NCBI GenBank assembly: GCA_013298545.1
Contig: JAAFIA010000014.1
Location: 32 to 64,031 of the forward strand
Direction: 5' to 3'
DNA from: Bacteroidota bacterium
GTDB taxonomy: Bacteria; Bacteroidota; Bacteroidia; Palsa-965
DNA length: 64,000 bases
Shown here in pieces: positions 21,375 through 37,404 of this stretch. The notes under the pieces are model-generated. The model did not search any database, had not been told where the DNA came from, and saw only the letters and a program-made list of their open reading frames with translations. The position numbers and the translations under genes were made by a program. Position 1 is the stretch's first letter. Each line of letters starts with the position of its first letter.

Positions 21375-21860
21375 TTATACTACTTTTTCAATGCTACCAA
21401 TGTAATTTTTCAGAAACGTTCGTGCTCTGAAAATATAAACTTTCACTTGTGCTTCGCTAAGTCCGGTTATTTCGCCAATTTCTTCATACGAATAGCCTTC
21501 ATAGTCGCGAAGTAAAACCACCGAGCGTTGAATCTCGGGCAGTTTACCCAATGCTTCCTGCAAAATTTCTTTCAGATCGCTATACTGCTTCGTATGCGAG
21601 AGCGCAATCATAGGCGCTTCATCCATCGAACCTTGACGTTGATCTTTGCGCAAGGCATCGATCATGGTTCGATAGGCCGTCGTAAACATATACGACTTGG
21701 CGTTTTTGGCTTCTGTATCCGATACTTTGAGCCACAGTTTCTCAAAAGTATCCTGTACAATGTCCTTCGCTTTGTCCTTATCCTTTACATTCTTCAGAAT
21801 AAAGCGGTACAGGTTGTCGGCGTACAAGTCCACACAGCGATTGAACTCTTCTGCAGTCAT
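21375..21860 (-). CDS. ECF-subfamily RNA polymerase sigma-70 factor
   Basis: 161 aa; region 2 (DIVQDTFEKLW) and region 4 HTH (SYEEIGEITGLSEAQVKVYIFRAR). Confidence 0.85.
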   Translation of the reverse strand: MTAEEFNRCVDLYADNLYRFILKNVKDKDKAKDIVQDTFEKLWLKVSDTEAKNAKSYMFTTAYRTMIDALRKDQRQGSMDEAPMIALSHTKQYSDLKEILQEALGKLPEIQRSVVLLRDYEGYSYEEIGEITGLSEAQVKVYIFRARTFLKNYIGSIEKVV

Positions 21861-21968
21861 GGTTTTTAGGTGCTTCCGGGAATAAGACGGTTAAACCCAA
21901 GCCGAAGTTACAGGAGTTTTTGAATATCTCGCAATCAATTGGTTGTTAGGCCATTAAAAAAATAAACA

Positions 21969-22415
21969 TTAAACTTGCTTCATTAATTGCGAATAGGCCT
22001 CTTCAGGAGTTTGCAAATCGCTTAACACATTATTAAGTGTTGGGTTGGTTAGGGTAAAACACCATACATTGGATAGGATCAGATTATCCAAGATTTTGTC
22101 GGTAAGTGCTATATCTTGAAAAAAGAAACTCGTTTTAAAACGTAAATCGCCATCGGTATAATCAAACTCGAAATTACCCACATTTAAGCCATAATTTATT
22201 CGAGTAATTAATTCCGCAATCTGGGATCTTTTATCAACTCTAATCTTAGGTTGAAATATCGAATAGACTGAAATACGTTCTTCACGTAGAATAAAATCTA
22301 CGATGAGATTAAATTTTATTCCTTCATGATTTATTGGAATCAAAAAAGCCCCCTCCGAGATAGAGTCAAATTGCCATCCCTTATGATTAAAATATCGAAT
22401 CAAGGACTCGCGCAT
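21969..22415 (-). CDS. Hypothetical protein, possibly YbjN-like fold
   Basis: 148-aa ORF with ATG start, 8 nt after the upstream ORF's stop; lies in an AT-rich (about 33% GC) islet. The family call rests on weak pattern similarity only. Confidence 0.45.
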   Translation of the reverse strand: MRESLIRYFNHKGWQFDSISEGAFLIPINHEGIKFNLIVDFILREERISVYSIFQPKIRVDKRSQIAELITRINYGLNVGNFEFDYTDGDLRFKTSFFFQDIALTDKILDNLILSNVWCFTLTNPTLNNVLSDLQTPEEAYSQLMKQV

Positions 22416-22423
22416 GTGTAGGA

Positions 22424-22999
22424 TTATTTATGAATTGATAAACCCTTTCCGATAAAATCCGAAAAGTCAAATACGGTATGATCATTTGAGTATGGTAATG
22501 GGTAGGGTATGTATTTTTTGGCGATGGAGAAATAGTTTGAAAGTTTCTGATAGGGGCTAAGAATTTCTATGTCAGCCGAAGGGAAATTAGTTTTTAAGAA
22601 AGCATGAATTTTCTCGATCTGAGGCGAAAATGTTACATCAAAGAAAGTGTCCGCTGTTGGATAATGATCAGAGGTGAGCTTTTCTATTGGAATGATTGGT
22701 GTGTGCTCTAAGTAGAATCCTCTTTTTATTTCAGTAACCATGTATTCTTGATAAGGGTTATCAAGAATAAGTTTTTTTAGCGAAATCTTTCGGTCTATAA
22801 AAGCGCGAAGTTTTGACGGAGGTACCTGAAAAATCAACCAAGTATTACTCTCATTTGAATAATCTACCCAATAGAATAAATATAGATTATTGTTGCGTAC
22901 ATCAAAGAACATAGAAAGCTCTGGCCCATCGTGGTTAATGAGATCGCCGACTCGGATTAAGTTTGCGCCAAGCGTATTTGCTTTATCATGCAACATCAT
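22424..22999 (-). CDS. Hypothetical protein (AT-rich islet, middle gene)
   Basis: About 191-aa ORF; ATG at 22999 overlaps the 3' end of the upstream ORF by 14 nt; no recognisable motif. Confidence 0.45.
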   Translation of the reverse strand: MMLHDKANTLGANLIRVGDLINHDGPELSMFFDVRNNNLYLFYWVDYSNESNTWLIFQVPPSKLRAFIDRKISLKKLILDNPYQEYMVTEIKRGFYLEHTPIIPIEKLTSDHYPTADTFFDVTFSPQIEKIHAFLKTNFPSADIEILSPYQKLSNYFSIAKKYIPYPLPYSNDHTVFDFSDFIGKGLSIHK

Positions 23000-23435
23000 C
23001 AAATATATTTATTCTTTTTATAATTCGTTTACTCAAATCTGCGTTTTCATATTCATGAAAATCAAAATGGCTCGTCTCTTCATTAAAATCTCCTGCCAAA
23101 CCATCTGTTTCATGCAATTGCAAATGAGCGATGTAATCTCCTTTATCTCTTCGAAATTTAACTTGAAGTTTAGGTGGCTTATTTGCTAAAACGGCCTTGT
23201 AACGAGCTTTTGCTTCTGTCTCATTTTTATATAAAGATAACCCGTAGCCGGAACACATTTTGTCTGATTCATCGAGTACTTTGGCTGGTGGATATTGGAT
23301 TAACCATAAGGGTTTGAAATCATTTTCATGTGCTTGAGCATGCACCCATCGAAATGCCAACATCGAAACACCAGAAAAATTTGCAGCAGGACAGTGATCA
23401 AATTGCCTCAAAAAATCTTTATACTTAAGCTCCAT
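22986..23435 (-). CDS. Hypothetical protein (AT-rich islet, first gene)
   Basis: About 149-aa ORF from ATG 23435 (MELKYKDF...); no recognisable motif. Confidence 0.4.
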   Translation of the reverse strand: MELKYKDFLRQFDHCPAANFSGVSMLAFRWVHAQAHENDFKPLWLIQYPPAKVLDESDKMCSGYGLSLYKNETEAKARYKAVLANKPPKLQVKFRRDKGDYIAHLQLHETDGLAGDFNEETSHFDFHEYENADLSKRIIKRINIFDDVA

Positions 23436-23583
23436 ACAAAAAAACAACAATTAAAAATTAAACCTTCCATCATCTATTCCCTGCAAAAGTATAACATTCG
23501 AATACGCCATGTCAAGTCCCTAGCCTCCAAAGCGATCTAACTCGTTGACTATCTGCACAATATTTTTCTAGGCAGATTCTCCC

Positions 23584-24546
23584 TTAAACATCGCCATCCC
23601 GTTTCATCGGCCCTTTGCCCCAATCTGCCAATTCTTCTGCCGACCACAATTCTGGAAAAAACACATTCAACTGTAACGATGGTGGCAAATATTGTTTCCA
23701 ATTTGTTCCGCCAGTAGCGGCAATATCTTCCGGTTTCTTTTCTAAATAATGCGAGGCCGACCAAACGTGTTGTAGTTTCCAATTGACGTTCACATTTGCA
23801 TCGAGCCAGCGCAGGGCTTTTTTAAGCTCTTCTGTTTTTTCAACTTCCGGCAAATTGCGCCAAAGAGCAGCAAGATTTGTATCTCTATTTTCTTGACCCA
23901 ATGCTAAAAATGTAGCCCCATACTTTTCTTCAAATTGTTGAAGGGTGAGCGTCTTTTTACCTGAACCATCTTCGGTAGCACCCGAACGCCAATAAATATG
24001 ATCAAACAAATCGGTGAGGGACGATTGCGAAGAAACTTTATCGCGCGATTTTGCGGCTACCAAATTGATGAAATCCGTTGAACGAATTTCAATCATGCGG
24101 TATTGGCCCGATTGGAATCCGCTTGCAGGAGTTAGTGAAAGTCGGTACTTCAAAAATTGTTCGCGTTCCATGCCATCGCGCATAATCCGAAACGATGTAA
24201 TGAGCGCATCGAAATAATTCGCAATACGCAATACGCGTGTACGGAAAAACTCACCTGTCAATGTTCCTGATTTTCCCCGCTCCGCCAATTGATCATATTC
24301 CAACTGACACAGTTTAAAATACAATTCTGTAATCTGATGGTACATGATGAAAATCTTCTCATCCGGAAAAGCCGTGCGTGGTTTTTGCAACGTGAGCAAC
24401 GTATCGAGTTGAATATAATCCCAGTAATTCAGATAATCAGCATAAATCATGCTGTCTAAATAGACACCTAAATCTTGTTGCTTGTCGTTGAGTTTGGTTT
24501 GAAGCTGTTGGAGCTTATCAAGAATTTCTGGAGAAAAATCGGCCAT
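23584..24546 (-). CDS. kynA: Tryptophan 2,3-dioxygenase
   Basis: TDO signature YIQLDTLLTLQKP...DEKIFIMYHQITELYFKL; ATG at 24546 (the track TTG start is at 24573). Confidence 0.75.
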   Translation of the reverse strand: MADFSPEILDKLQQLQTKLNDKQQDLGVYLDSMIYADYLNYWDYIQLDTLLTLQKPRTAFPDEKIFIMYHQITELYFKLCQLEYDQLAERGKSGTLTGEFFRTRVLRIANYFDALITSFRIMRDGMEREQFLKYRLSLTPASGFQSGQYRMIEIRSTDFINLVAAKSRDKVSSQSSLTDLFDHIYWRSGATEDGSGKKTLTLQQFEEKYGATFLALGQENRDTNLAALWRNLPEVEKTEELKKALRWLDANVNVNWKLQHVWSASHYLEKKPEDIAATGGTNWKQYLPPSLQLNVFFPELWSAEELADWGKGPMKRDGDV

Positions 24547-28310: not shown

Positions 28311-29531
28311 TTACAAGGCTGCAACGAGTAGATCAAGATCTTTGTACGGAAGATTGAAATGTTCGCCAAGGTATTTGTTGGTGAGCATGCCGTTGTAAAG
28401 ATAAACGCCGCTGCGCACGCCTACGTTATGGCGAAGCATATTGGCAATTCCGGCTTCTTCGCCGATGTTGAGCATAATGGGGGCAAAAATGGTACTCAGC
28501 GCATACGAGGCCGTGCGCGATACACGCGAGGCAATATTGGGAACGCAATAGTGTGTAACGCCGTGTTTACGGAAAACGGGTTTGGAATGATTGGTTACTT
28601 GCGATGTTTCAAAACAACCGCCTTGGTCAATGCTCACATCCACGATTACTGCACCTGCTTTCATTTCGGCCACCATTTCTTCTGTTACAACGCAAGGTGT
28701 TCGCCCTTCGCTGGCACGAAGTGCGCCAATGGCAACATCGGCAGTTTTTAAATGTTTGGCCAAAACCTTTGGCTGAATGATGGAAGTGAAAATGCGTGTT
28801 CCTAAAGCACTTTGCAAGCGACGCAACCGATACACCGAATTGTCAAACACCTTGACGGATGCGCCTAGTCCGAAAGCGGCACGGGCTGCGTATTCGCCTA
28901 CTGTTCCTGCACCAATGATAACCACTTCGGTTGGTGCAACGCCAGAGATGCCGCCAAGAATTGCGCCTTGTCCGTTATTGACATTGCTTAAATATTCGGC
29001 AGCAATGAGGATGGATGTGCCGCCAGCAATTTCGCCCATGGAGCGAATTACGGGGAATACACCATCTTCGTCTTTGATCCATTCAAACGCGAGGGCGGTT
29101 ACTTTTTTATCGATGAGGCGGCGCAAAAAACTTTCGGGTTGCGCCGGAAGTTGTAGCGTAGAAAGAAGCAATTGTTTGGGCTGCATCCATTCAATCTCTT
29201 GAAGCGATGGCGGCGCAACTTTCAGAATGATTTCCGAATTTTTATAAAGTTCTTCGGGGGTATAGCAGATTTTTGCTCCTGCTTCGGAATAGTCGTTGTC
29301 TTGAAAACTCGACGGCTTGCCAGCTCCGGCTTCAACAGAAACTTCATGCCCGTGATTTACGAGCAACGCAACATCGTCAGGAACAAGTGAAACACGGTTT
29401 TCCTGAAACGAAATTTCTTTCGGAATACCAATGCTTAAACTACCTTTTTTCTTGGCTACTTCGAGCATTTCTTCCTGAGGCATCAGGGCGCTCTTGGTCA
29501 GCGATTGCAGTACATCACGAGAAGTCATCAT
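28311..29531 (-). CDS. ald: Alanine dehydrogenase (AlaDH/PNT family)
   Basis: IGIPKEISFQENRVSLVPD N-terminal domain and NAD-binding VIIGAGTVGEYAARAAFGLGASVKVFD. Confidence 0.7.
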   Translation of the reverse strand: MMTSRDVLQSLTKSALMPQEEMLEVAKKKGSLSIGIPKEISFQENRVSLVPDDVALLVNHGHEVSVEAGAGKPSSFQDNDYSEAGAKICYTPEELYKNSEIILKVAPPSLQEIEWMQPKQLLLSTLQLPAQPESFLRRLIDKKVTALAFEWIKDEDGVFPVIRSMGEIAGGTSILIAAEYLSNVNNGQGAILGGISGVAPTEVVIIGAGTVGEYAARAAFGLGASVKVFDNSVYRLRRLQSALGTRIFTSIIQPKVLAKHLKTADVAIGALRASEGRTPCVVTEEMVAEMKAGAVIVDVSIDQGGCFETSQVTNHSKPVFRKHGVTHYCVPNIASRVSRTASYALSTIFAPIMLNIGEEAGIANMLRHNVGVRSGVYLYNGMLTNKYLGEHFNLPYKDLDLLVAAL

Positions 29532-29652: not shown

Positions 29653-30534
29653 TTATGGGGTAGCGATTTCTTGTGGCTCGATGTGAATCAACACATGACC
29701 GAGTTCGGGAATATCGGCTTTTAAGGCATCTTGAAGCAGATGCGCCAAATCGTGTCCTTCGCGTACACTAATGTCGCCTTTGACCATGGCGTGAAGTTCG
29801 ATGTGGTATTTCATGCCCGCTTTTCGGATAAAACATTTTTCTGTTCCCGTAATGCCTTGCACGCCTGATGCCACTTTTCGGATTTCGTCAATCAAATCGT
29901 CATAGACATGCTCGTCCATAATTTCGCTCAAGGCGGGACGAAAAATTAAATAGCTGTTGTATAAAATAAAAAACGATGCGAGTAGCGCAGCCCAATCATC
30001 GGCAGCTTCATATCCTTTTCCTAAAATAAGGGCAATCGAAATTCCGATAAATGCGGCAACAGAGGTAATGGCATCGCTGCGGTGATGCCAAGCATCGGCT
30101 TTGAGCGAAGAACTATGCGTTTCTTTACTTTTCTTCATCACAAAACGATACGATAATTCCTTCCACAAAATAATCACACCAAGTACAATGAGGGTATAAG
30201 GTTTGGGCAAAGCATGTGGTGTGCGAATATTGTCGATGCTTTCTAAGGCAATAATGGTTGCCGAGACAATGAGAAAACCAACAACTACAAACGTCATTAA
30301 CGTTTCGGCGCGGCCATGTCCGTAGGGATGATTTTTATCGGGCGGACGATTGGCGTATTTAATGCCCAACAAAACGAGAATGGAAGAAAATACATCAGCC
30401 GTTGATTCAATGGCATCGGCAATCAAGGCATACGAGTTTCCGAAATAACCGACAATGCCTTTAATCAGGGCAAGTACAATGTTTCCAACAATGCTGAAAT
30501 AAGTTGTATTAACAGCCGTTTTTTCGTTGGTCAT
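29653..30534 (-). CDS. Cation diffusion facilitator family metal efflux transporter
   Basis: CDF signature in TM2-TM3 (ALIADAIESTADVFSS ... HPYGHGRAETL); 293 aa; start overlaps the tsaE stop (ATGA). Confidence 0.85.
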   Translation of the reverse strand: MTNEKTAVNTTYFSIVGNIVLALIKGIVGYFGNSYALIADAIESTADVFSSILVLLGIKYANRPPDKNHPYGHGRAETLMTFVVVGFLIVSATIIALESIDNIRTPHALPKPYTLIVLGVIILWKELSYRFVMKKSKETHSSSLKADAWHHRSDAITSVAAFIGISIALILGKGYEAADDWAALLASFFILYNSYLIFRPALSEIMDEHVYDDLIDEIRKVASGVQGITGTEKCFIRKAGMKYHIELHAMVKGDISVREGHDLAHLLQDALKADIPELGHVLIHIEPQEIATP

Positions 30535-30965: not shown

Positions 30966-32519
30966 TTATTTTGCACTAAGTATCACAAACGGAATAATCA
31001 TTTCTTCTAACGAAATGCCGCCATGTTGAAAGGTATTGCGGTAATAGGTAACGTAGTGGTTGTAGTTGTTTGGATAGGCAAAAAACAAATCTTGTTTTGC
31101 AAAAACAAATGCGGTGCTGACGTGCTGCTTGGGTAAAAATGCGTCAGCGGGATTGCGAATTTCAAACACATCTTTTTTGATGTAATCCAAACTCTTGCCT
31201 TGTTTGTAACGCAAGTTAGTATTGACATTGCGGTCGCCGACAACTTTTGATGGTTCGGTAACTTTAATGGTTCCATGATCGGTGGTGATGATCATGCGTG
31301 CGCCGCGATCGGCAACTTGTTTGATCATGTCGTGCAAGGGCGAATGTTCAAACCACGAAAGGGTGAGTGAGCGGTAAGCCGCATCGTCATCGGCGAGTTC
31401 GCGAATGACTTCCATTTCGGTACGTGCATGCGAGAGCATATCAACGAAATTGTAAACAATGACGTTGAGTTTATTTTGCATGAGGTTACTGAAACTATCG
31501 GCAAGTTTTTTTCCGGCAGTGTGGTTGGTAATTTTGTTGTAGGAGAATTTTACGTCTTTGCCAAGGCGTTTGAGGTTGGCGGCAAGAAATTCTTCTTCGT
31601 GCATATTTTTTCCACCTTCGTCTTCGTCGTTGAGCCATGCATTCGGGAATCGCTTTTCGATTTCAGAGGGCATGAGTCCGGCAAAGAGTGCGTTGCGCGC
31701 GTATTGCGTAGCGGTAGGCAAAATGCTAAAAAATAAATCTTCGGATTCGACTTTGAAGTATTGGCTCAAAACGGGTTGAAGGACTTTCCATTGGTCGTAG
31801 CGCAAATTATCGATGAGCATAAAAAAGAGTGGCCCTTCTTTATCGAGTTGCGGTGCAAGTTTATTTTTGAGGAGGGTGTGGGAGAGGGTGGGGGGATTTT
31901 TCTCTTTACCATTTAACCAACTGATGTAGTTCTGTTCAATAAATTTCGAGAAAGCAACATTGGCTTCGCGTTTTTGCATGGTCAGCACTTCATTCATGCC
32001 CGCATCTTGCGATTTGCCAAGTTCGAGTTCCCAGAAGACTAATTTTTTATACACATCAGTCCATTCGGTATGCGAGAGTTTGTCGCTCAAGGTCATGCCA
32101 ATGTTTCGGAATTCTTGTTGGTATCCGCTGGTGGTTTTTTCAGAAACAATGCGTTTATTGTCTAAGATCTTTTTGAGCGCGAGCAGAATCTGATTTGGGT
32201 TGACGGGTTTAATGAGGTAATCGGCAATTTTAGAACCGATAGCATCTTCCATGAGATTTTCTTCTTCACTTTTGGTAATCATCACCACGGGCACGTCGTT
32301 GTGCAAATTTTTCAGTCGGGTGAGTGTTTCCAATCCAGAAAGGCCGGGCATATTTTCGTCGAGAAAAACAATGTCGAAGTCTTGCTTTTCGGCGAGTTCA
32401 ATGGCTTCGTTTCCACTGGTAACGGTTGTTACTTCGTAGCCTTTATCTTTCAAAAAGATAACATGTGGTTTGAGCAAATCGATTTCGTCGTCGGCCCAGA
32501 GAATGCGAACTTGATCCAT
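30966..32519 (-). CDS. porX: T9SS response regulator PorX (CheY-like receiver + PglZ/alkaline-phosphatase-like domain)
   Basis: Receiver domain (ILWADDEIDLL ... FLDENMPGLSG) followed by a roughly 380-aa PglZ-type domain; 517 aa, matching PorX architecture; located in T9SS context. Confidence 0.7.
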   Translation of the reverse strand: MDQVRILWADDEIDLLKPHVIFLKDKGYEVTTVTSGNEAIELAEKQDFDIVFLDENMPGLSGLETLTRLKNLHNDVPVVMITKSEEENLMEDAIGSKIADYLIKPVNPNQILLALKKILDNKRIVSEKTTSGYQQEFRNIGMTLSDKLSHTEWTDVYKKLVFWELELGKSQDAGMNEVLTMQKREANVAFSKFIEQNYISWLNGKEKNPPTLSHTLLKNKLAPQLDKEGPLFFMLIDNLRYDQWKVLQPVLSQYFKVESEDLFFSILPTATQYARNALFAGLMPSEIEKRFPNAWLNDEDEGGKNMHEEEFLAANLKRLGKDVKFSYNKITNHTAGKKLADSFSNLMQNKLNVIVYNFVDMLSHARTEMEVIRELADDDAAYRSLTLSWFEHSPLHDMIKQVADRGARMIITTDHGTIKVTEPSKVVGDRNVNTNLRYKQGKSLDYIKKDVFEIRNPADAFLPKQHVSTAFVFAKQDLFFAYPNNYNHYVTYYRNTFQHGGISLEEMIIPFVILSAK

Positions 32520-32616
32520 AATTTAGAACTATCGGAAGCGGTTATTGGCCGCAGATGAGTGAATGTTTTGGTGAGGATTTTGAAAATTCTTTTTGAAAGA
32601 GCAAGATAATTATATG

Positions 32617-33468
32617 TTACTCTTCATCGCTAAACATAGCAGCAATTAAGGCGATTAAAGCCAATCCAACTAATACGTTTGCTGTATTTGTATTTTTGTT
32701 AAAAACAGGTGTTGTGTTTATTGGAAGAGAAGTGTTATTGTATATGATTGTTGGTTCATGTATGGTAGAGTCTTCGTCAGAATTGAATGTTGGCGAAATT
32801 TGAATACCGGAAAGTTTGTGGCTCAATTCCTCGATTTTGTTTACGAGATTATTTCTGTTAAAGTAGTACGGTAGAATTTTTTCATGAAAATGTGTCGGAA
32901 TCCGTATCTCACTTTCTTCTGATTGAACGAGAATAACTTTGCAGTTTACGTCAGTGGCTTTATAAATATATTTTTCCAATTCGGTAAAATCTTTCCCATA
33001 CACATTCATAATTAAAACTATCGTTTCTCGCTGAATGGAAGTATTGGGCAAAATCTTTTCAATCATCAATCCTTTTTCTGAAGCAAGTTTTTCAAAATGC
33101 TGCAACAAGTCTTGTCCTTTTTTGCCTGAATGAACAGCAACATAAATTTTTTTTGATCGAATTTCTTCGAAAAAACGAGCACGTAAATCAATGTATTCTT
33201 TAACCGAATTTCGGATCACATCAGCAACTGAAGAGGATGCTTTTATCACTTTAACGCGTTGTTTAAACAAAACATCACCAAAAAGATCGATCACATAAAA
33301 AAACGCTCCATTAATGAATGAAGGAGCGAGATACTCAACTCGATCAAATGAAACCTCAATGTTTTGAAACGGATTTCTTCGAATCGAATTGGCAATTTCT
33401 TTGCCCACAATCAATCCGCCCGAACTAGTCAGGTGATCAGATGTGAGTTTTGAAACGGCTATTTCCAT
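32617..33468 (-). CDS. DUF4325-like (STAS-like) domain protein with C-terminal transmembrane anchor
   Basis: 283 aa; ATG overlaps the upstream stop (TAATG); N-terminal about 100 aa resemble a STAS-like DUF4325; C-terminal VLVGLALIALIAAMF is hydrophobic; AT-rich (about 33% GC). Confidence 0.45.
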   Translation of the reverse strand: MEIAVSKLTSDHLTSSGGLIVGKEIANSIRRNPFQNIEVSFDRVEYLAPSFINGAFFYVIDLFGDVLFKQRVKVIKASSSVADVIRNSVKEYIDLRARFFEEIRSKKIYVAVHSGKKGQDLLQHFEKLASEKGLMIEKILPNTSIQRETIVLIMNVYGKDFTELEKYIYKATDVNCKVILVQSEESEIRIPTHFHEKILPYYFNRNNLVNKIEELSHKLSGIQISPTFNSDEDSTIHEPTIIYNNTSLPINTTPVFNKNTNTANVLVGLALIALIAAMFSDEE

Positions 33469-34334
33469 TAAAATTCGATTGTTTCGTCGAAACTTTCCTT
33501 TTCGAGTTCCTCAAAGTTACGAAAATCGAGCGATGCGCGTATGAGTGTTCCCGGATGGTCGTACTCAAGTAGTTGATGATCTTCCATGTTGAATGTATAG
33601 CCCGTTTTTGGGTTTACAAACAAACAACCCCGACCAGAACGTATTTCTAATTCTCTTTTTACGGTTTCAATCAAGGAAATGAGGTTGTTTAAACCTCGTC
33701 CATAATTCTGTGCGGTTGTTTTTGTTGTAATGAAATTTTCTGTCGCGTACCAGATTGCCTCCGAATCACTTCGCCGTTGCATTTCAATTCCGAAATGGCT
33801 TTTTATCCGGTGAGCAATTCCGGTACCTAAATCAGAAACAACGATTTCTATTTTATTCGAGACAATTGGGGCAATGTGAATAAAACCAAAGCGATAATCC
33901 GAATGCTGACATATGTTCATGTACAACTCTGCAAATACAGCAATAGCTTGTGTTAAATCTTTTTGTTTTAAAGTAGGATTAGTCTTGAAAAAGTCAAGCA
34001 GTTGATTCCGCCGATTCAGTAACTTCTCCTCATTATCAACACTTGTAAGAAATAGACCAAAGCTGCCAGCATGAATTTCGATACTTTGGTACGGATGATC
34101 TGCAATTTTCTTGAAATACGCTAATGCATTATTTGACGATTCGACATGCGAGATAGCAACGCGATTGTTTTGTTGTTCTAAAATTATACTGAGAAGAAAA
34201 CAGGTAGCAGAGTTATCAATTTCTTCAACAGATGCCCAATCAAATTTAATCGTAACAGGCTTTCTCTGTTGTAATGCTAATCGTATATCTACAAGTTCTT
34301 GTAGCGAAATTTTTGTGTTGAAACTAAAAACCAT
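33468..34334 (-). CDS. STAS-like N-terminal domain fused to GHKL/RsbW-SpoIIAB-like serine kinase ATPase domain
   Basis: N-box-like ELYMNICQHS and G1-box VVSDLGTGIAHRI; G2-like NYGRGLNN; N-terminal anti-sigma-antagonist-like segment. ATG at 34334 sits 2 nt after the ispF stop; the track TTG start is at 34358. AT-rich. Confidence 0.5.
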   Translation of the reverse strand: MVFSFNTKISLQELVDIRLALQQRKPVTIKFDWASVEEIDNSATCFLLSIILEQQNNRVAISHVESSNNALAYFKKIADHPYQSIEIHAGSFGLFLTSVDNEEKLLNRRNQLLDFFKTNPTLKQKDLTQAIAVFAELYMNICQHSDYRFGFIHIAPIVSNKIEIVVSDLGTGIAHRIKSHFGIEMQRRSDSEAIWYATENFITTKTTAQNYGRGLNNLISLIETVKRELEIRSGRGCLFVNPKTGYTFNMEDHQLLEYDHPGTLIRASLDFRNFEELEKESFDETIEF

Positions 34335-34336
34335 TG

Positions 34337-34816
34337 CTACTTTTTTTGAATCAAACAAACCGCATACGCATTGGCACCGTTTTCGCTGCCCACATACCCC
34401 AGTTTTTCATTGGTGGTTGCTTTGATCGAAACGCAATCTTCGGCCACGCCGAGAATTGGCGCAAGCACACGCACCATTTCGGGAATGTGTGGATTTATTT
34501 TTGGTTGTTCGAGGCAAAGTGTCGCATCTACATTGCCCACGCGCCAGCCACGCTCCAAAAGCAAACGCACCACTTCGCGCAACAAATCTTTGCTATCGGC
34601 ACCTTTCCAACGCGCATCGGTATTCGGAAAGTGAAAACCAATATCGCGTAGTGCAGCCGCACCCAACAACGCATCGCAAATCGCATGCAACAACACATCC
34701 GCATCCGAATGCCCATCGCAACCCTTTTCATGTGGAATTAAAACACCACCCAGCCAAAGCGGACGACCCACCACCAATTGATGTACATCGAATCCAAATC
34801 CTACGCGTATATCCAT
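34337..34816 (-). CDS. ispF: 2-C-methyl-D-erythritol 2,4-cyclodiphosphate synthase
   Basis: GFGFDVHQL ... GHSDADVLLHAICDALLGA signature. Confidence 0.85.
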   Translation of the reverse strand: MDIRVGFGFDVHQLVVGRPLWLGGVLIPHEKGCDGHSDADVLLHAICDALLGAAALRDIGFHFPNTDARWKGADSKDLLREVVRLLLERGWRVGNVDATLCLEQPKINPHIPEMVRVLAPILGVAEDCVSIKATTNEKLGYVGSENGANAYAVCLIQKK

Positions 34817-34865: not shown

Positions 34866-36041
34866 TTATTTTGAAGGAGCAGGTTTGCGTTTCAATCGAA
34901 TCGAATCAAACGCCACATGTAAAGAAATTCTATATGTCTTATCCAAACCACGAGCGGTGTTTCTGATTAGCATCAAGTATGAGAAATTCAAATCGAATGC
35001 ACGATAATGAATGCCGATTCCAGACGTGAAAAATTGGCGAAACCCTTTTGTCTTATGCTCATAGAAAAAACCACCACGCACAAATAAGAAACGATTAAAT
35101 CCATATTCCATGCCACTAGCTAGAATAATTTCATTTAACTCTTCCCGAAAACCATTTGGTGCATCTGTAAACGAGCCAAAAATTCCCGATGCTGCTGATC
35201 GATTTGGGTCGCGCCCTGCAAGAATTGCATAATGCCCATTAGCCAATAATATTGGTTGGCCTAACGAGTCTGTTTTATAGGTCGGTGGTGTTGGGACTAG
35301 CAATTTGTTCGCATCAATATAAAAGCCAAGTTGATGTGCCGCGCTCATGTCGATACGCGTTCCTATTCCTAAGCGCAGATTTGTTGTAATGAAGTCGCTA
35401 GTTGTTTGATTCGTGTGTTTTACTTTTGCACCAATGTTGGAAATATGAACGCCATACATTAGTATAGTTCTCTTGTCGCCCAATGAAAATTGATCGTTTG
35501 TATAAAAGGCGGAGATATCAGCAGCGTATGTCTTTCCCTGCATTCCAGCGAAAAGCGACGAATAAATATAGCGAGCCGAAATAGCAGATGAGAAATGGTC
35601 GTTTATTTTATAGGCTAATGATAAATCCAAAGCTAATGCTGTTTGACTATTCCTAGTGTTAAAACGACCCGCGGTGTAATTGCGCATACTAAAGCCAAGT
35701 GTTGTTTTCTCCTTCAATCGCCTACACCCACTTAAATAGAAGACATTAATCTCAGGTCGAACTGCGCGCAGCCAAGGTGTGTAAGAAAAACTCAATGCGC
35801 TTTTATGTGCTATCCAAACAAGTTTGGCTGGATTCCAAAAATTAGCATTTGCATCAGCAGTTGTCGCCGCACCTAATTCACCCATCCCACATGCCCTAGC
35901 ATCTGGAGAAATGGATAAGAAGGGAACTGCAGTTGAAATCGTATTAAGTTGTCCGATACTGTTTTGTCCCACTAGATCAATTCTTGCAGAGAACGTGAGC
36001 AAGATGAGTGATAGCAATCGCATTGCTCTGATGTTCTTCAT
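34866..36041 (-). CDS. PorV/LptO-family T9SS outer-membrane protein (second, divergent paralog)
   Basis: QLNTISTAVPFLSISPDARACGMGE...FWNPAKL is highly similar to the adjacent PorV, and the barrel is FadL-like. Confidence 0.6.
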   Translation of the reverse strand: MKNIRAMRLLSLILLTFSARIDLVGQNSIGQLNTISTAVPFLSISPDARACGMGELGAATTADANANFWNPAKLVWIAHKSALSFSYTPWLRAVRPEINVFYLSGCRRLKEKTTLGFSMRNYTAGRFNTRNSQTALALDLSLAYKINDHFSSAISARYIYSSLFAGMQGKTYAADISAFYTNDQFSLGDKRTILMYGVHISNIGAKVKHTNQTTSDFITTNLRLGIGTRIDMSAAHQLGFYIDANKLLVPTPPTYKTDSLGQPILLANGHYAILAGRDPNRSAASGIFGSFTDAPNGFREELNEIILASGMEYGFNRFLFVRGGFFYEHKTKGFRQFFTSGIGIHYRAFDLNFSYLMLIRNTARGLDKTYRISLHVAFDSIRLKRKPAPSK

Positions 36042-36150: not shown

Positions 36151-37404
36151 TTATTTGCTATCACCACCATCATTCTGCGATTTAAACGCATCGAAGTCGA
36201 AGGTGAGTGTGAATCGTAATGTGTTTTGCAACGGACTTCGTTGGCCATTGGCTGGAATCAAATATGCAAAATCCAATCCGAAAACATTGTAACGCAAGCC
36301 TGCACCCAAGGTAATGAACTGACGATTTCCTTTTAACGGATGCTCATAAAAATAACCAGCGCGCACCGCAAATTGCTTGTCGTACCAATATTCAAAACCC
36401 GCAGCGATATTGAATTCGCGAAGTTCTTCTTTAAATCCACCTGGAGCATCGTTGAATGAACCAAGAATACCTGATGGCACAGAACGGTTAGGATCTTTAC
36501 CATACAAAATCTGATACTGTCCATCTGGGCCAATAATAGGTGAGCCATTGGAATCAAGTTCATACACAGGAGGCGTTGGCACAAGCAATTTGTTCAACTC
36601 CACAGAAAATGCAATCTGGTTATAATCATCTGCATCAACCAACATACCAGCTCCCAAACGCATATTGATTGGAATAAAATCGCGGTTGGTAGATGTAGAG
36701 TAAGAAATTTTTGCACCAATATTAGACAAGTTTAAACCAGCCATCATGGTTGCTTTTTTTCCACTCAGCTTAATATCATCGTTAAAATAATAAGCCGCAA
36801 GATCAACGGCAAACGATGTTCCGGGTTTGGTATCTTGACCAGAAACCGTAATGCCATTGGTGAGGTTGGAACGAATAAAACGACCCGCCATAGCCGCAGA
36901 GAAACGATTGCCAAGCTTGCGCGAATAAGCAGCGTCTAAAGCAAATTCGTTTGGACGAAACTGGCCAATGCTATTGCCCACAACATCAGTAAACGTAATA
37001 TTTCCCAACGAGAAATAACGCAATGACCCACCAAATGCAGAATTTTTATCCAGTTTGGAGTAGAAACTGACATAAGCTAGATTGATGTCGGGAACAAGAG
37101 CGCGCAACCAAGGCGTGTAAGAAACACCAAGCCCCATTTTTTTCTGCGCAAACGCTAGTTTGGCCGGATTCCAATGCAACGAATTGACATCAGGCGTTGT
37201 AGAAACACCCGTTTCGCCCATTCCGCCAGCGCGGGAATCGGGAGAAATCATCAGAAACGGAACCGCTGTGGTAATGGTATTCAGTTGACCAAGAAGTTGG
37301 TCAGTCGTAAGGTTGACTTGGGCCATAGCAGGAGTTGATACTCCGGCTGCAAGACCGAATAGCAATGCAGCTTTTGCTATTGTAGAGTTCATTCGTGGAT
37401 TCAT
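36151..37404 (-). CDS. porV: T9SS outer-membrane channel/shuttle protein PorV (LptO)
   Basis: QLNTITTAVPFLMISPDSRAGGMGETG...HWNPAKL; about 400 aa; immediately downstream of porU. Confidence 0.7.
   Translation of the reverse strand: MNPRMNSTIAKAALLFGLAAGVSTPAMAQVNLTTDQLLGQLNTITTAVPFLMISPDSRAGGMGETGVSTTPDVNSLHWNPAKLAFAQKKMGLGVSYTPWLRALVPDINLAYVSFYSKLDKNSAFGGSLRYFSLGNITFTDVVGNSIGQFRPNEFALDAAYSRKLGNRFSAAMAGRFIRSNLTNGITVSGQDTKPGTSFAVDLAAYYFNDDIKLSGKKATMMAGLNLSNIGAKISYSTSTNRDFIPINMRLGAGMLVDADDYNQIAFSVELNKLLVPTPPVYELDSNGSPIIGPDGQYQILYGKDPNRSVPSGILGSFNDAPGGFKEELREFNIAAGFEYWYDKQFAVRAGYFYEHPLKGNRQFITLGAGLRYNVFGLDFAYLIPANGQRSPLQNTLRFTLTFDFDAFKSQNDGGDSK

Follow-up and report, generated by a model that had tools for sequence, protein, structure and literature searches.

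A kinase-STAS gene pair between ispF and porX in a Bacteroidota genome, read as a variant of the CapK/CapS and VapK/VapS switches

The gene pair and its surroundings

The DNA analysed here (hereafter the window) is a stretch of 64,000 nucleotides of contig JAAFIA010000014.1 from a Bacteroidota bacterium, in which two genes lie on the minus strand between ispF and porX (Table 1). Both predicted ORFs were confirmed, and the TAATG stop/start overlap given in a preliminary description of this DNA was read from the sequence at 33466-33470, where the gene 2 ATG and the gene 1 stop codon have one base in common. That description ran the module up to 34358; the module itself stands, but its upper boundary had to be corrected. 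The TTG at 34358 was rejected as the start of gene 1, which is likely the ATG at 34334, giving 288 aa and matching the database protein. This ATG follows the ispF stop codon after 2 nt. Downstream of the pair lie porX (REC + PglZ), tsaE, and CDF.

Table 1. Features of the kinase-STAS pair, with coordinates in the window
Feature	Coordinates	Strand	Description
Gene 1	33468..34334	-	288 aa; predicted STAS-GHKL serine kinase, CapK/VapK family; ORF = database protein P0001
Gene 1 N-terminal STAS domain	34035..34334	-	aa ~1-100; putative sensor/regulatory domain; diverges most within the family
Gene 1 GHKL (Bergerat-fold) kinase domain	33471..33962	-	aa ~125-288
N-box ELYMNICQHS	33900..33929	-	E136, N140, H144; catalytic base and Mg-binding Asn; coordinates checked against the sequence
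G1 box SDLGTGI	33816..33836	-	D168, G170, G172; invariant in 40/40 homologues
Gene 2	32617..33468	-	283 aa; STAS (DUF4325), alpha/beta domain, linker, tail anchor; ORF = P0002
Gene 2 STAS-like DUF4325 domain	33175..33468	-	aa 1-98; likely kinase substrate
Ser50 codon TCA	33319..33321	-	motif A-P-S-F-I-N-G, start of STAS helix 2; predicted phospho-acceptor
Gene 2 middle domain	32815..33156	-	aa ~105-218 (~115 aa), alpha/beta, no assigned family; candidate output domain
N/S/T-rich low-complexity linker	32683..32814	-	aa 219-262; aligns poorly, length varies among long forms
C-terminal hydrophobic tail anchor	32632..32682	-	aa 263-279, ANVLVGLALIALIAAMF; then SDEE and stop
Spacer, gene 2 stop to porX start	32520..32616	-	97 nt; synteny breakpoint versus related genomes

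Promoter and terminator scans yielded no terminator-like or promoter-like site in the spacer between gene 2 and porX, no terminator 3' of gene 2, and, with the Bacteroidetes TAnnTTTG -7 box included in the promoter scan, no convincing site ahead of gene 1 or of porX. A search for direct or inverted repeats and target-site duplications flanking the pair returned only short, imperfect matches at chance level. The GC content of the pair is 35.9% (gene 1, 37.3%; gene 2, 34.7%), compared with a window mean of 43.2% (sd 2.5), 43.4% for porX, and 49.6% for ispF, a dip of about 3 sd that is among the lowest 0.3% of GC windows. The contrast described earlier is thus real, although its size (about 33% versus about 50%) was overstated.

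No sigma factor is encoded by the genes adjoining the pair. The only one seen in a Pfam scan of the neighbours is an ECF sigma factor gene 11 kb away (21375-21860), which is not of the SigB/SigF type bound by RsbW/SpoIIAB-type kinases. This agrees with the earlier picture of a partner-switching-like module with no cognate sigma factor nearby.

Domain architecture of the kinase and its STAS partner

In word-indexed homology searches both proteins retrieved only themselves, and the family surfaced only by exhaustive phmmer, which returned 251 cluster representatives for gene 1, mostly of ~280-310 aa. A PDB sequence search with the single gene 1 or gene 2 protein found no match, and NCBIfam gave nothing useful on the window proteins. 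Against Pfam, gene 1 alone scored 16 bits for HATPase_c, below the cut-off of 26.4, and E=0.3 for STAS_2, likewise sub-threshold, so that its domains have to be called from the family profile and a structure model. From these, gene 1 is predicted to be a serine kinase in which an N-terminal STAS domain is fused to a SpoIIAB/RsbW-type GHKL domain, in line with the preliminary description. The STAS domain begins at residue ~2 according to the secondary structure of the model and the profile matches, with no N-terminal HTH, and the structures 1TID and 6M36 are among the matches. The N, G1, and G2 boxes of the SpoIIAB/RsbW-type fold are present with all catalytic boxes intact; of the residues in the N-box and G1 box reported earlier, N140, H144, D168, G170, and G172 do not vary among 40 homologues, and E136 occurs in 39 of them.

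The preliminary description had matched the pair to no named system. While PADLOC-DB v2.0.0 models indeed gave no match to either window protein, close named relatives can now be given, namely CapK/CapS and VapK/VapS/VapC (Chambers et al., EMBO J 2026; PMC13373217). CapK phosphorylates CapS at Ser54, which breaks a STAS-mediated interaction, and CapK/CapS respond to DNA damage and regulate operons such as CBASS, Bub, and Thoeris; VapKSC is a toxin-antitoxin-like anti-phage system of Escherichia sp. E4736 that protects against phage Bas42, and in which VapS is phosphorylated at Ser48 (PMC13373217). The gene 1 family profile aligns with Escherichia VapK over 260 columns covering both the STAS and the GHKL domain (hhalign 99.7%, E=1e-25), and gene 1 has a full-length match to the phage family PHROG phrog_3364 (E=5e-26). 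Of the 40 kinase homologues, 18 match the PADLOC DrmA (DISARM) model PDLC02567 in its N-terminal ~250 positions, whereas gene 1 does not.

One residue of the kinase sets it apart from both named relatives. Glu38 of gene 1 aligns with VapK F54 and CapK W68, an aromatic proposed to stack on activating ssDNA (PMC13373217). This column holds E, K, D, N, and similar residues in the close subfamily (aromatic in 2/22), and Phe in 14 of 18 distant VapK-like members. As the ssDNA-stacking aromatic is replaced by Glu38 and the position varies in the subfamily, the activating cue may differ or be absent.

The N-terminal part of gene 2 is a DUF4325 domain, for which the Pfam check proposed earlier was positive (PF14213, 30.6 bits versus a cut-off of 23, aa 26-81), unlike the two gene 1 domains. 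The best PDB match of the gene 2 STAS family profile is Escherichia VapS (9z7o_A, E=0.0044), and PHROG phrog_9989 is matched by the gene 2 STAS domain at E=0.002 and by its relatives at 1e-9 to 1e-25. Both PHROG families are annotated as 'unknown function' (phrog_3364 the kinase, phrog_9989 the STAS protein) and represent phage versions with a short STAS partner of ~100 aa. Ser50 is the predicted phosphorylation site: the residues P49, S50, F51, and N53 (P-S-F-x-N motif) are invariant in the gene 2 subfamily alignment, and the motif aligns with that around the phosphorylated VapS Ser48 ('APSFIN' versus 'ASPFFN'), although Ser50 itself sits one column after Ser48 in the HMM alignment.

The remainder of gene 2 stands where VapS has its short C-terminal tail. 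Its middle domain is conserved in six long-form proteins, and profile searches with its relatives gave no significant Pfam or PDB match, which agrees with the earlier view of a domain without known family. Sub-threshold hints pointed to nucleoside deoxyribosyltransferase (E=0.026 and 1.4), SIS, and periplasmic binding protein; a second STAS domain or a kinase relative was ruled out by hhalign, and a TIR-like or NDT-like fold, considered from the strand/helix pattern, could not be supported. A single-sequence AF2 model of gene 2 was unusable (pLDDT 38.6). The C-terminal tail anchor proposed earlier is evident as a segment with a Kyte-Doolittle mean of 2.49 over 17 aa followed by SDEE, and matching hydrophobic segments (1.8-2.4) with short charged tails end the proteins of L087, L094, and L092. 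No HTH or wHTH family was matched in gene 2 by Pfam.

Relatives, genomic contexts, and history of the cassette

Pairing is strict. At every locus examined (L082-L107 and the phage loci L090, L100, and L101), the gene directly after a kinase homologue encodes a DUF4325 or long-form STAS protein, and in most cases the two genes overlap. The long architecture of gene 2 occurs in five other loci; in long-form loci, the gene 2-type protein is often paired with short kinases that have no STAS domain. All observed cases of the long form with its membrane anchor come from Bacteroidota-like contigs, either cellular or metagenomic. Many relatives, including the orthologue in L082, have only the short ~100-aa STAS partner, so the long C-terminal part of gene 2 is dispensable for the role of the minimal pair. 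No long-form or close-subfamily locus examined has a PIN gene adjoining the pair.

These partner arrangements bear on the possibility that the pair is an addiction or defence module in which gene 1 is itself a toxin that phosphorylates host or phage proteins, with the gene 2 STAS domain as a pseudo-substrate inhibitor and the gene 2 C-terminal domain and anchor serving only to localise or stabilise it. SpoIIAB-type kinases form stable inhibitory complexes with their STAS partner, most family members consist of a ~290-aa kinase and a ~100-aa STAS protein with no recurring third gene, and the L082 orthologue keeps just the kinase and a short STAS. Such a kinase toxin is nevertheless unlikely, given that the long C-terminal architecture is kept in six divergent loci, which suggests more than localisation, that these loci often combine it with the short kinases just mentioned, and that in the one tested relative the toxin is VapC rather than the kinase (PMC13373217).

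The genomic settings of the family are varied. In Streptococcus prophages the pair follows the lysin at the prophage end; in Burkholderia phage vB_E188 it has the integrase on one side and BrnTA/portal genes on the other; in the archaeal prophage psiM100 it is part of 'inserted fragment IFa'; and in a Francisella prophage it neighbours the CI repressor and the integrase (PMC7924643). At one relative locus the pair adjoins a Type ISP restriction-modification enzyme, at another it overlaps the end of an N6-methyltransferase gene, and a long-form pair is wedged between sufC and sufD. Whether joined to the ispF 3' end in the T9SS cluster or placed between sufC and sufD, the cassette has almost zero intergenic DNA around it, which is an unusual placement. 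The close kinase subfamily and the gene 2 alignment were not found in viral contigs, tblastn gave no match for gene 1 in plasmids or for gene 2 in phages, and a metagenome scan with the gene 2 alignment recovered 3 loci only. The prophage, restriction-modification, and unrelated-operon contexts favour a conflict or signalling cassette over RsbW/RsbV housekeeping, as had been suggested. The DrmA matches among the kinase homologues, a GC content lower than that of the surrounding locus in most loci, and the pseudogenised copy in L092 also speak for an accessory or conflict character. The pair also differs from SpoIIAB/SpoIIAA and RsbW/RsbV in that Pfam detects no group-3 sigma factor or PP2C phosphatase among its immediate neighbours, a STAS domain is part of the kinase itself, the predicted substrate is a multi-domain membrane protein, and the family is phage-borne and patchy.

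The preliminary description regarded the pair as an insertion between ispF and porX. A simple insertion into this junction was rejected, as no relative has such a junction: ispF is upstream of porX in 0 of 80 related porX loci, which leaves no ancestral junction of this kind, and likewise the pair in 0 of 80. In L082 and L092, two other related genomes, ispF is directly followed by the pair, and the flanking proteins there share 62-80% identity with those of the window. In three related genomes the pair closes the porU-porV-ispF T9SS cluster on its 3' side. In L082 and L092 the pair has a GC content of 33-35%, against 43-46% around it, and the GC of the pair is below that of the locus in 8 of 9 loci. 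The low GC from which horizontal acquisition had been proposed therefore recurs as a family trait and is not a sign of recent arrival. Synteny of the window with the closest relatives stops upstream of porX, and the genes after the pair in L082 and L092 are convergent and unrelated.

The T9SS-cluster position in three genomes could instead reflect a host regulatory role, with the pair acting as a partner-switching regulator tied to type IX secretion or the envelope that would control a T9SS component or PorX signalling at the membrane. By analogy, BtrW/BtrV control type III secretion and SiaB/SiaC control a diguanylate cyclase. This role appears quite improbable: none of the 80 related porX loci has the pair, the kinase is only 36% identical between the window and L082 while the flanks are 68-80% identical, and both genes are disrupted in L092 with the flanking T9SS genes intact. 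Homologous long-form pairs that other lineages have in a suf operon and beside restriction-modification genes, as well as the phage-borne members of the family, also argue against it.

A narrower form of local control would follow the CapKS scheme, with gene 2 repressing porX-tsaE-CDF until released on phosphorylation. CapK/CapS lie directly upstream of the operon they regulate (PMC13373217), and the pair lies directly upstream of porX with the 97-nt spacer in between. Such control is scarcely credible, as gene 2 has no HTH/wHTH match and is predicted to be membrane-anchored, gene 1 is devoid of the N-terminal HTH of CapK, the genes downstream in L082 and L092 are unrelated and convergent, and the porX genes of 80 relatives are without the pair.

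The relatives also raise the question of whether the pair is a decaying, non-functional remnant of an old insertion. In L092 it is pseudogenised, with the kinase frameshifted and ~130 bp inserted into the STAS gene, and the gene 2 orthologue of L082, 61% identical in the STAS domain, has lost the C-terminal 180 aa. In the window, however, both ORFs are full length, the catalytic residues and the P-S-F-x-N motif are intact, and the stop/start overlap is kept, which makes decay very unlikely here.

A proposed membrane-tethered kinase-STAS switch

By its sequence features, the pair, a distant relative of both named systems, can be read as an architectural variant of the CapKS/VapKSC switch without a PIN toxin and without a wHTH. 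As in VapKSC, the kinase combines STAS and GHKL domains without an HTH, with the profile aligned over both, and is followed by a tightly coupled DUF4325-type STAS gene with a conserved Ser at the start of helix 2. It differs from VapKSC in having no VapC/PIN gene, the next gene being porX; in identity, which is only ~18-26%; in its Bacteroidota host and its place at the end of a T9SS/ispF operon; in Glu38 instead of VapK F54; and in that VapS ends in a short C-terminal inhibitory helix, whereas gene 2 continues into the ~115-aa alpha/beta domain, linker, and tail anchor. With CapK/CapS it shares a GHKL serine kinase with a STAS domain and a STAS-domain partner immediately downstream, and the N-terminal HTH of CapK, the C-terminal wHTH of CapS (a DNA-binding repressor), and the siting upstream of immune operons are all absent here.

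The pair is fairly likely to belong to the CapK/CapS - VapK/VapS family as a switch of two genes, a kinase and its STAS substrate, carried as an accessory cassette that moves on evolutionary timescales, and probably serves as a conflict or stress module with the C-terminal part of gene 2 as its output. Gene 1 would be a cytoplasmic serine kinase in which a cue from stress or infection acts through the variable STAS domain to gate the SpoIIAB-like GHKL domain. Once activated, it would phosphorylate Ser50 at the start of helix 2 in the STAS domain of gene 2, which is presumed to be tethered to the inner membrane by its tail anchor and in which the alpha/beta domain would take the place of the toxin-inhibiting tail of VapS or the wHTH of CapS. 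Phosphorylation may then undo a contact made by the STAS domain, be it in a dimer or in a clamp on the alpha/beta domain of the same protein, and this release would switch on a membrane-proximal output, most likely growth arrest or an abortive-infection-type defence. Points against this reading are the lack of a PIN toxin, a wHTH, or any recognisable effector, the negative PADLOC result, Glu38 in place of the ssDNA-stacking aromatic, the one-column offset of Ser50 from VapS Ser48, the many relatives with a short STAS partner alone, the T9SS-cluster position in three genomes, and the negative scan of viral contigs with the close kinase subfamily.

A more specific version of this switch is possible, if rather doubtful: the long form might be a self-contained two-gene abortive-infection system in which the STAS antitoxin is fused in cis to a hitherto undescribed membrane-anchored effector (the ~115-aa alpha/beta domain and anchor). 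The CapK/VapK-like kinase would have a fast-diverging STAS sensor for a non-ssDNA cue, proposed because the ssDNA-stacking aromatic is missing, and the whole would be a promoter-less cassette riding on housekeeping operons (ispF, suf).

Only in 2026, with CapKS and VapKSC, was it recognised that kinase-STAS switches regulate and trigger bacterial immunity. The pair described here places such a switch in Bacteroidota, outside the organisms studied so far and with the residue thought to read ssDNA missing, and points to a third, uncharacterised kind of output, namely a membrane-tethered alpha/beta domain. Should the C-terminal half of gene 2 prove to be an effector, this would be a new membrane-associated effector domain, possibly with a new activating signal; if the two-gene abortive-infection system holds true, the kinase-STAS defence switch would gain both a new effector class and a new input. 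Two PHROG families annotated as 'unknown function' also gain a likely function, as do the common pairs of DUF4325 and 'ATP-binding protein' genes in Streptococcus, Burkholderia, and Francisella prophages and in an archaeal virus.

Layout and base composition of the locus

Both open reading frames that the preliminary description had placed between ispF and porX are present there, on the minus strand, and their limits are listed in the table together with those of the other features discussed. The kinase gene (gene 1) most likely starts at an ATG 2 nt past the ispF stop codon, and its own stop codon TAA has one base in common with the ATG of gene 2, the STAS-substrate candidate. A TTG at 34358 was rejected as the start of gene 1, as it would overlap ispF. 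By Pfam, the neighbouring genes encode YgbB/IspF, PorX (receiver and PglZ), TsaE, a cation-diffusion-facilitator, and PorV. Scans for promoters and terminators found no recognisable promoter in front of gene 1 and no terminator in the spacer between gene 2 and porX; transcription of the pair is probably by read-through from ispF. A search for repeats flanking the pair found none. The porX start codon lies between the arms of an 18-nt inverted repeat (89% complementary, 129 nt between the arms), one of them in the spacer that follows gene 2 and one within porX; this repeat may have arisen by chance.

Coordinates of the gene pair and of other features in the window and in related loci
Feature	Sequence	Coordinates	Strand	Remarks
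Gene 1	window	33468-34334	-	288 aa, identical to database protein P0001; most likely start ATG 34334
Gene 2	window	32617-33468	-	283 aa, database protein P0002; ends 97 nt upstream of the porX ATG
ispF stop codon	window	34337-34339		TAG
Gene 1/gene 2 overlap	window	33466-33470		TAATG
porX start codon	window	32519		ATG
18-nt inverted repeat	window	32441-32458 / 32588-32605		
Cation-diffusion-facilitator gene	window	29653-30534	-	
406-aa gene	window	28311-29531		
PorV paralogue, ispF-proximal	window	34866-36041		391 aa
PorV paralogue, distal	window	36151-37404		417 aa
AT-rich stretch	window	~21700-23700		35.6-36.5% GC
ORFs in AT-rich stretch	window	21969-22415, 22424-23002, 22986-23450	-	
ECF sigma factor gene	window	21375-21860		adjoins AT-rich stretch
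Insert in gene 2 orthologue	L092	6685-6830		
Pair between sufC and sufD	L087	6001-7456		
Pair between sufC and sufD	L102	4505-5960		
ORFB-ORFC in prophage psiM100	L101	2731-3862		

The dip in GC content at the pair is real, and is matched in only 0.24% of windows of the same size, but the contrast of 33 against 50% first put forward is too large: the pair has 35.9% and the window averages 43.2% (sd 2.5), with porX at 43.4% and ispF at 49.6%. The sole other stretch of the window that is as AT-rich encodes a YbjN-like protein, a weak DUF6575-like protein, and a 154-aa ORF without a family. The cation-diffusion-facilitator gene, a second window-specific gene tightly set in the same operon, overlaps the tsaE stop (ATGA); it is missing from the closest relatives, in which tsaE directly precedes the orthologue of the 406-aa gene.

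A divergent STAS-GHKL kinase and its STAS partner

Taken alone, gene 1 stays below the Pfam thresholds (HATPase_c 16 bits, cut-off 26.4; STAS_2 likewise), had no matches in PADLOC, NCBIfam, or PDB sequence searches, and, when searched by word index against 5.8 billion clusters, matched only itself. Exhaustive phmmer over 1.84 billion representatives yielded a family of 251 proteins at E<=1e-3, mostly of 280-310 aa, the nearest of which are only 33-36% identical. In an alignment of 40 members, N140, H144, D168, G170, G172, G214, L215, and G262 are invariant and E136 nearly so, which corresponds to the N, G1, G2, and G3 boxes of the Bergerat fold; 33 of the 40 match HATPase_c and three match STAS in Pfam. 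Over aa ~107-244 the profile of the family resembles CheA-P4, SpoIIAB, and histidine kinases, and over aa 7-83 it matches the STAS domains of MlaB, TM1442, and prestin. The AlphaFold2 model built from this alignment is confident (pLDDT 88.7, pTM 0.88). Because of these invariant boxes, profile matches, and model, the initial reading of gene 1 as a STAS-like domain joined to a GHKL kinase is correct. By computation, gene 1 is a SpoIIAB-like kinase that is catalytically intact and has its own STAS domain. Mean pairwise identity within the family is 20% for the STAS domain versus 36% for the GHKL domain.

Gene 2 contains a DUF4325 (STAS-like) domain at aa 26-81 (30.6 bits, Pfam threshold 23), followed by an alternating strand/helix region of ~115 aa, an N/S/T-rich linker, and a hydrophobic segment of 17 residues, ANVLVGLALIALIAAMF (Kyte-Doolittle mean 2.49), after which the protein ends in SDEE. 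The middle domain had no significant match among Pfam and PDB sequences, with sub-threshold hints only of nucleoside 2-deoxyribosyltransferases (E=0.026 for one member; E=1.4 for 1f8x). A relationship of this domain to STAS or GHKL was ruled out by profile comparison, and the single-sequence AF2 model of gene 2 (pLDDT 38.6) was useless for fold assignment. The same long architecture was found in five other loci (L087/88/89/102, L092, L094-96, L097, and L099), in proteins of 264-288 aa, all with a hydrophobic segment at the C-terminus and a charged tail that is short.

Pairing, genomic settings, and origin of the cassette

At every locus with a visible neighbourhood (L082-84, L085/86, L087-89, L091, L092/93, L094-96, L097, L099, L102, L103/104, L105, and L106/107), the kinase homologue directly precedes a STAS gene on the same strand, usually overlapping it or separated by a few nt, and this partner encodes a DUF4325 protein of ~100 aa at some loci and a long-form STAS protein at the others. 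In Burkholderia phage vB_E188, a 305-aa kinase homologue (STAS above the Pfam cut-off, HATPase_c just below) and a 98-aa DUF4325 protein lie between integrase and BrnTA/portal genes, and in eight Streptococcus prophages the pair comes after the lysin, where the prophage ends. In a published table of a Francisella prophage, a hypothetical protein of 293 aa is followed by a 112-aa DUF4325 protein, adjoining a CI repressor and integrase (PMC7924643). In Methanothermobacter prophage psiM100, the annotated 'inserted fragment IFa', in front of which lie three repeats of 125 bp, contains ORFB (252 aa), a kinase homologue (tblastn E=1e-8), and ORFC (107 aa), a putative STAS partner from its position and size; if ORFC is such a partner, the cassette also occurs in archaeal viruses. 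Among PHROG families, gene 1 matches phrog_3364 over its full length (E=5e-26) and the STAS domain of gene 2 matches phrog_9989, both annotated as "unknown function". Elsewhere, long-form pairs have a Type ISP restriction-modification enzyme as their neighbour or overlap the last part of a gene for an N6-adenine methyltransferase of 733 aa. A low-GC Bacteroidetes lineage has, in two independent assemblies, a long-form pair between sufC and sufD, with a short kinase of 209-210 aa without a STAS domain and gaps of 12-33 nt; the suf operon is otherwise ordinary, and one assembly (L087) has a ParE-like toxin gene further downstream. By computation, kinase and STAS genes are strictly paired across diverse, mostly accessory contexts. 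In addition, 18 of the 40 aligned kinase homologues, though not gene 1, match the PADLOC model of the DISARM protein DrmA (PDLC02567, positions ~32-253 of 1750; best E=4e-11), and therefore some DrmA defence helicases carry the STAS-GHKL module as an N-terminal fusion.

The proposal of a fresh insertion between ispF and porX did not hold: a genome scan with PorX gave 80 loci (62-86% identity), in none of which porX is preceded by ispF, gene 1, or gene 2, and the pair follows ispF elsewhere. In the closest relatives, downstream synteny is kept (porX, tsaE, and genes of 406, 134, and 1045 aa) and upstream synteny is lost. In a Bacteroidota MAG (L082), the order is porU-porV-porV-ispF-kinase-DUF4325, with the kinase (P0154) starting 4 nt past ispF, and in a third genome (L092/L093) the pair follows porU-porV-ispF. 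Flanking proteins of the window are 62-80% identical to these relatives versus only 36-41% for the kinase; gene 2 is 61% identical to L082 in its STAS domain and 40% identical over 231 aa to the reconstructed L092 protein. Between L082 and L092, identity is 69-92% for the flanks, 78% for the GHKL part of the kinase, and only 24% for its STAS domain. The L092 pair is damaged by a frameshift in the kinase and a ~130-bp insertion after the PSFING motif of the STAS gene, and in L082 the STAS protein has been shortened by 180 residues at its C-terminus. The GC content of the pair is below that of its locus in 8/9 loci (e.g., L082 33.1/43.1%, L092 34.7/46.0%, L087 23.1/29.1%, and the Burkholderia phage 54.1/62.1%). 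From the shared gene order, divergence, damage, and GC content, it follows that the cassette sits at the ispF 3' end in a small clade, where it is subject to turnover or decay; low GC characterises the family, and the window-specific event is the rearrangement that put porX after the pair. It is highly improbable that the pair described here is a dead remnant.

The L092 insert contains the repeated words GCTGTCCAAAA / GCTGTCCAAAACG and may be a small mobile insert. Two PorV paralogues stand in tandem upstream of ispF. The distal paralogue shares 75% identity with its counterpart in L082, and the proximal one shares only 32% with the L082 gene at the corresponding place and 42% with the other L082 copy; L092 has a single porV.

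Relation to CapKS and VapKSC, and a proposed switch

Kinase-STAS switches have been published in bacterial immunity since 2026. CapK (HTH-STAS-GHKL), which ssDNA activates, phosphorylates Ser54 of CapS (STAS-wHTH), upon which the repressor dimer dissociates and CBASS, Bub, Thoeris, and other operons are de-repressed (Chambers et al., EMBO J 2026; PMC13373217). VapK (STAS-GHKL without HTH) is proposed to phosphorylate Ser48 of VapS, a STAS domain with a short C-terminal helix, freeing the PIN toxin VapC, and the vapKSC operon protects against phage Bas42 by ~2 logs (PMC13373217). The gene 1 family profile aligned with VapK, its sequence taken from the AF3 model file of that study, across both domains (hhalign 99.7%, E=1e-25, 260 columns), and the sole significant PDB match of the profile of gene 2 and its relatives was 9z7o_A, "Escherichia VapS" (E=0.0044). 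That alignment places F-A-S48-P-F-F-N of VapS opposite L-A-P49-S50-F-I-N of gene 2, in which P49, S50, F51, and N53 are invariant in the subfamily. Computationally, gene 2 is a STAS partner that is co-translated with the kinase and whose predicted acceptor site holds an invariant serine, and both proteins are homologous to an experimentally characterised kinase/substrate pair.

However, the locus belongs to neither system. In contrast to VapKSC, it has no PIN gene, gene 2 has a 185-aa extension in place of the short helix, and F54 of VapK, the proposed ssDNA-stacking aromatic (CapK W68), is Glu38 in gene 1. This column is variable in the gene 1 subfamily and Phe in 14 of 18 distant VapK-like members; a near-invariant Trp33 lies five residues upstream in the subfamily. 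Unlike CapKS, it has no HTH on the kinase, no wHTH on the STAS protein, and no immune operon downstream. Transcriptional control of porX in the manner of CapKS is extremely improbable.

The pair is probably a kinase-STAS switch with a membrane-tethered output in gene 2. A stress or infection cue, possibly other than ssDNA, would act through the variable STAS domain of gene 1 to activate the kinase, which would phosphorylate Ser50 of gene 2. As in CapS and VapS, this would break a STAS-mediated interaction and so switch the membrane-tethered C-terminal part of gene 2, with growth arrest or defence as the likely outcome. The kinase/substrate relationship is far more secure than this output. A toxin-antitoxin module, with the kinase as the toxin and the STAS protein as its antitoxin, seems unlikely. 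A host partner-switch tied to the T9SS or the envelope is quite unlikely and nevertheless deserves serious weight, because the cassette lies within the T9SS cluster in three genomes. As a kinase-STAS switch, the pair belongs to a kind of system that is already known; it is best described as a new architecture with predicted function, rare at six non-redundant loci, in which a VapK-like kinase would act with a STAS protein fused to an alpha/beta domain without a known family and to a tail anchor.
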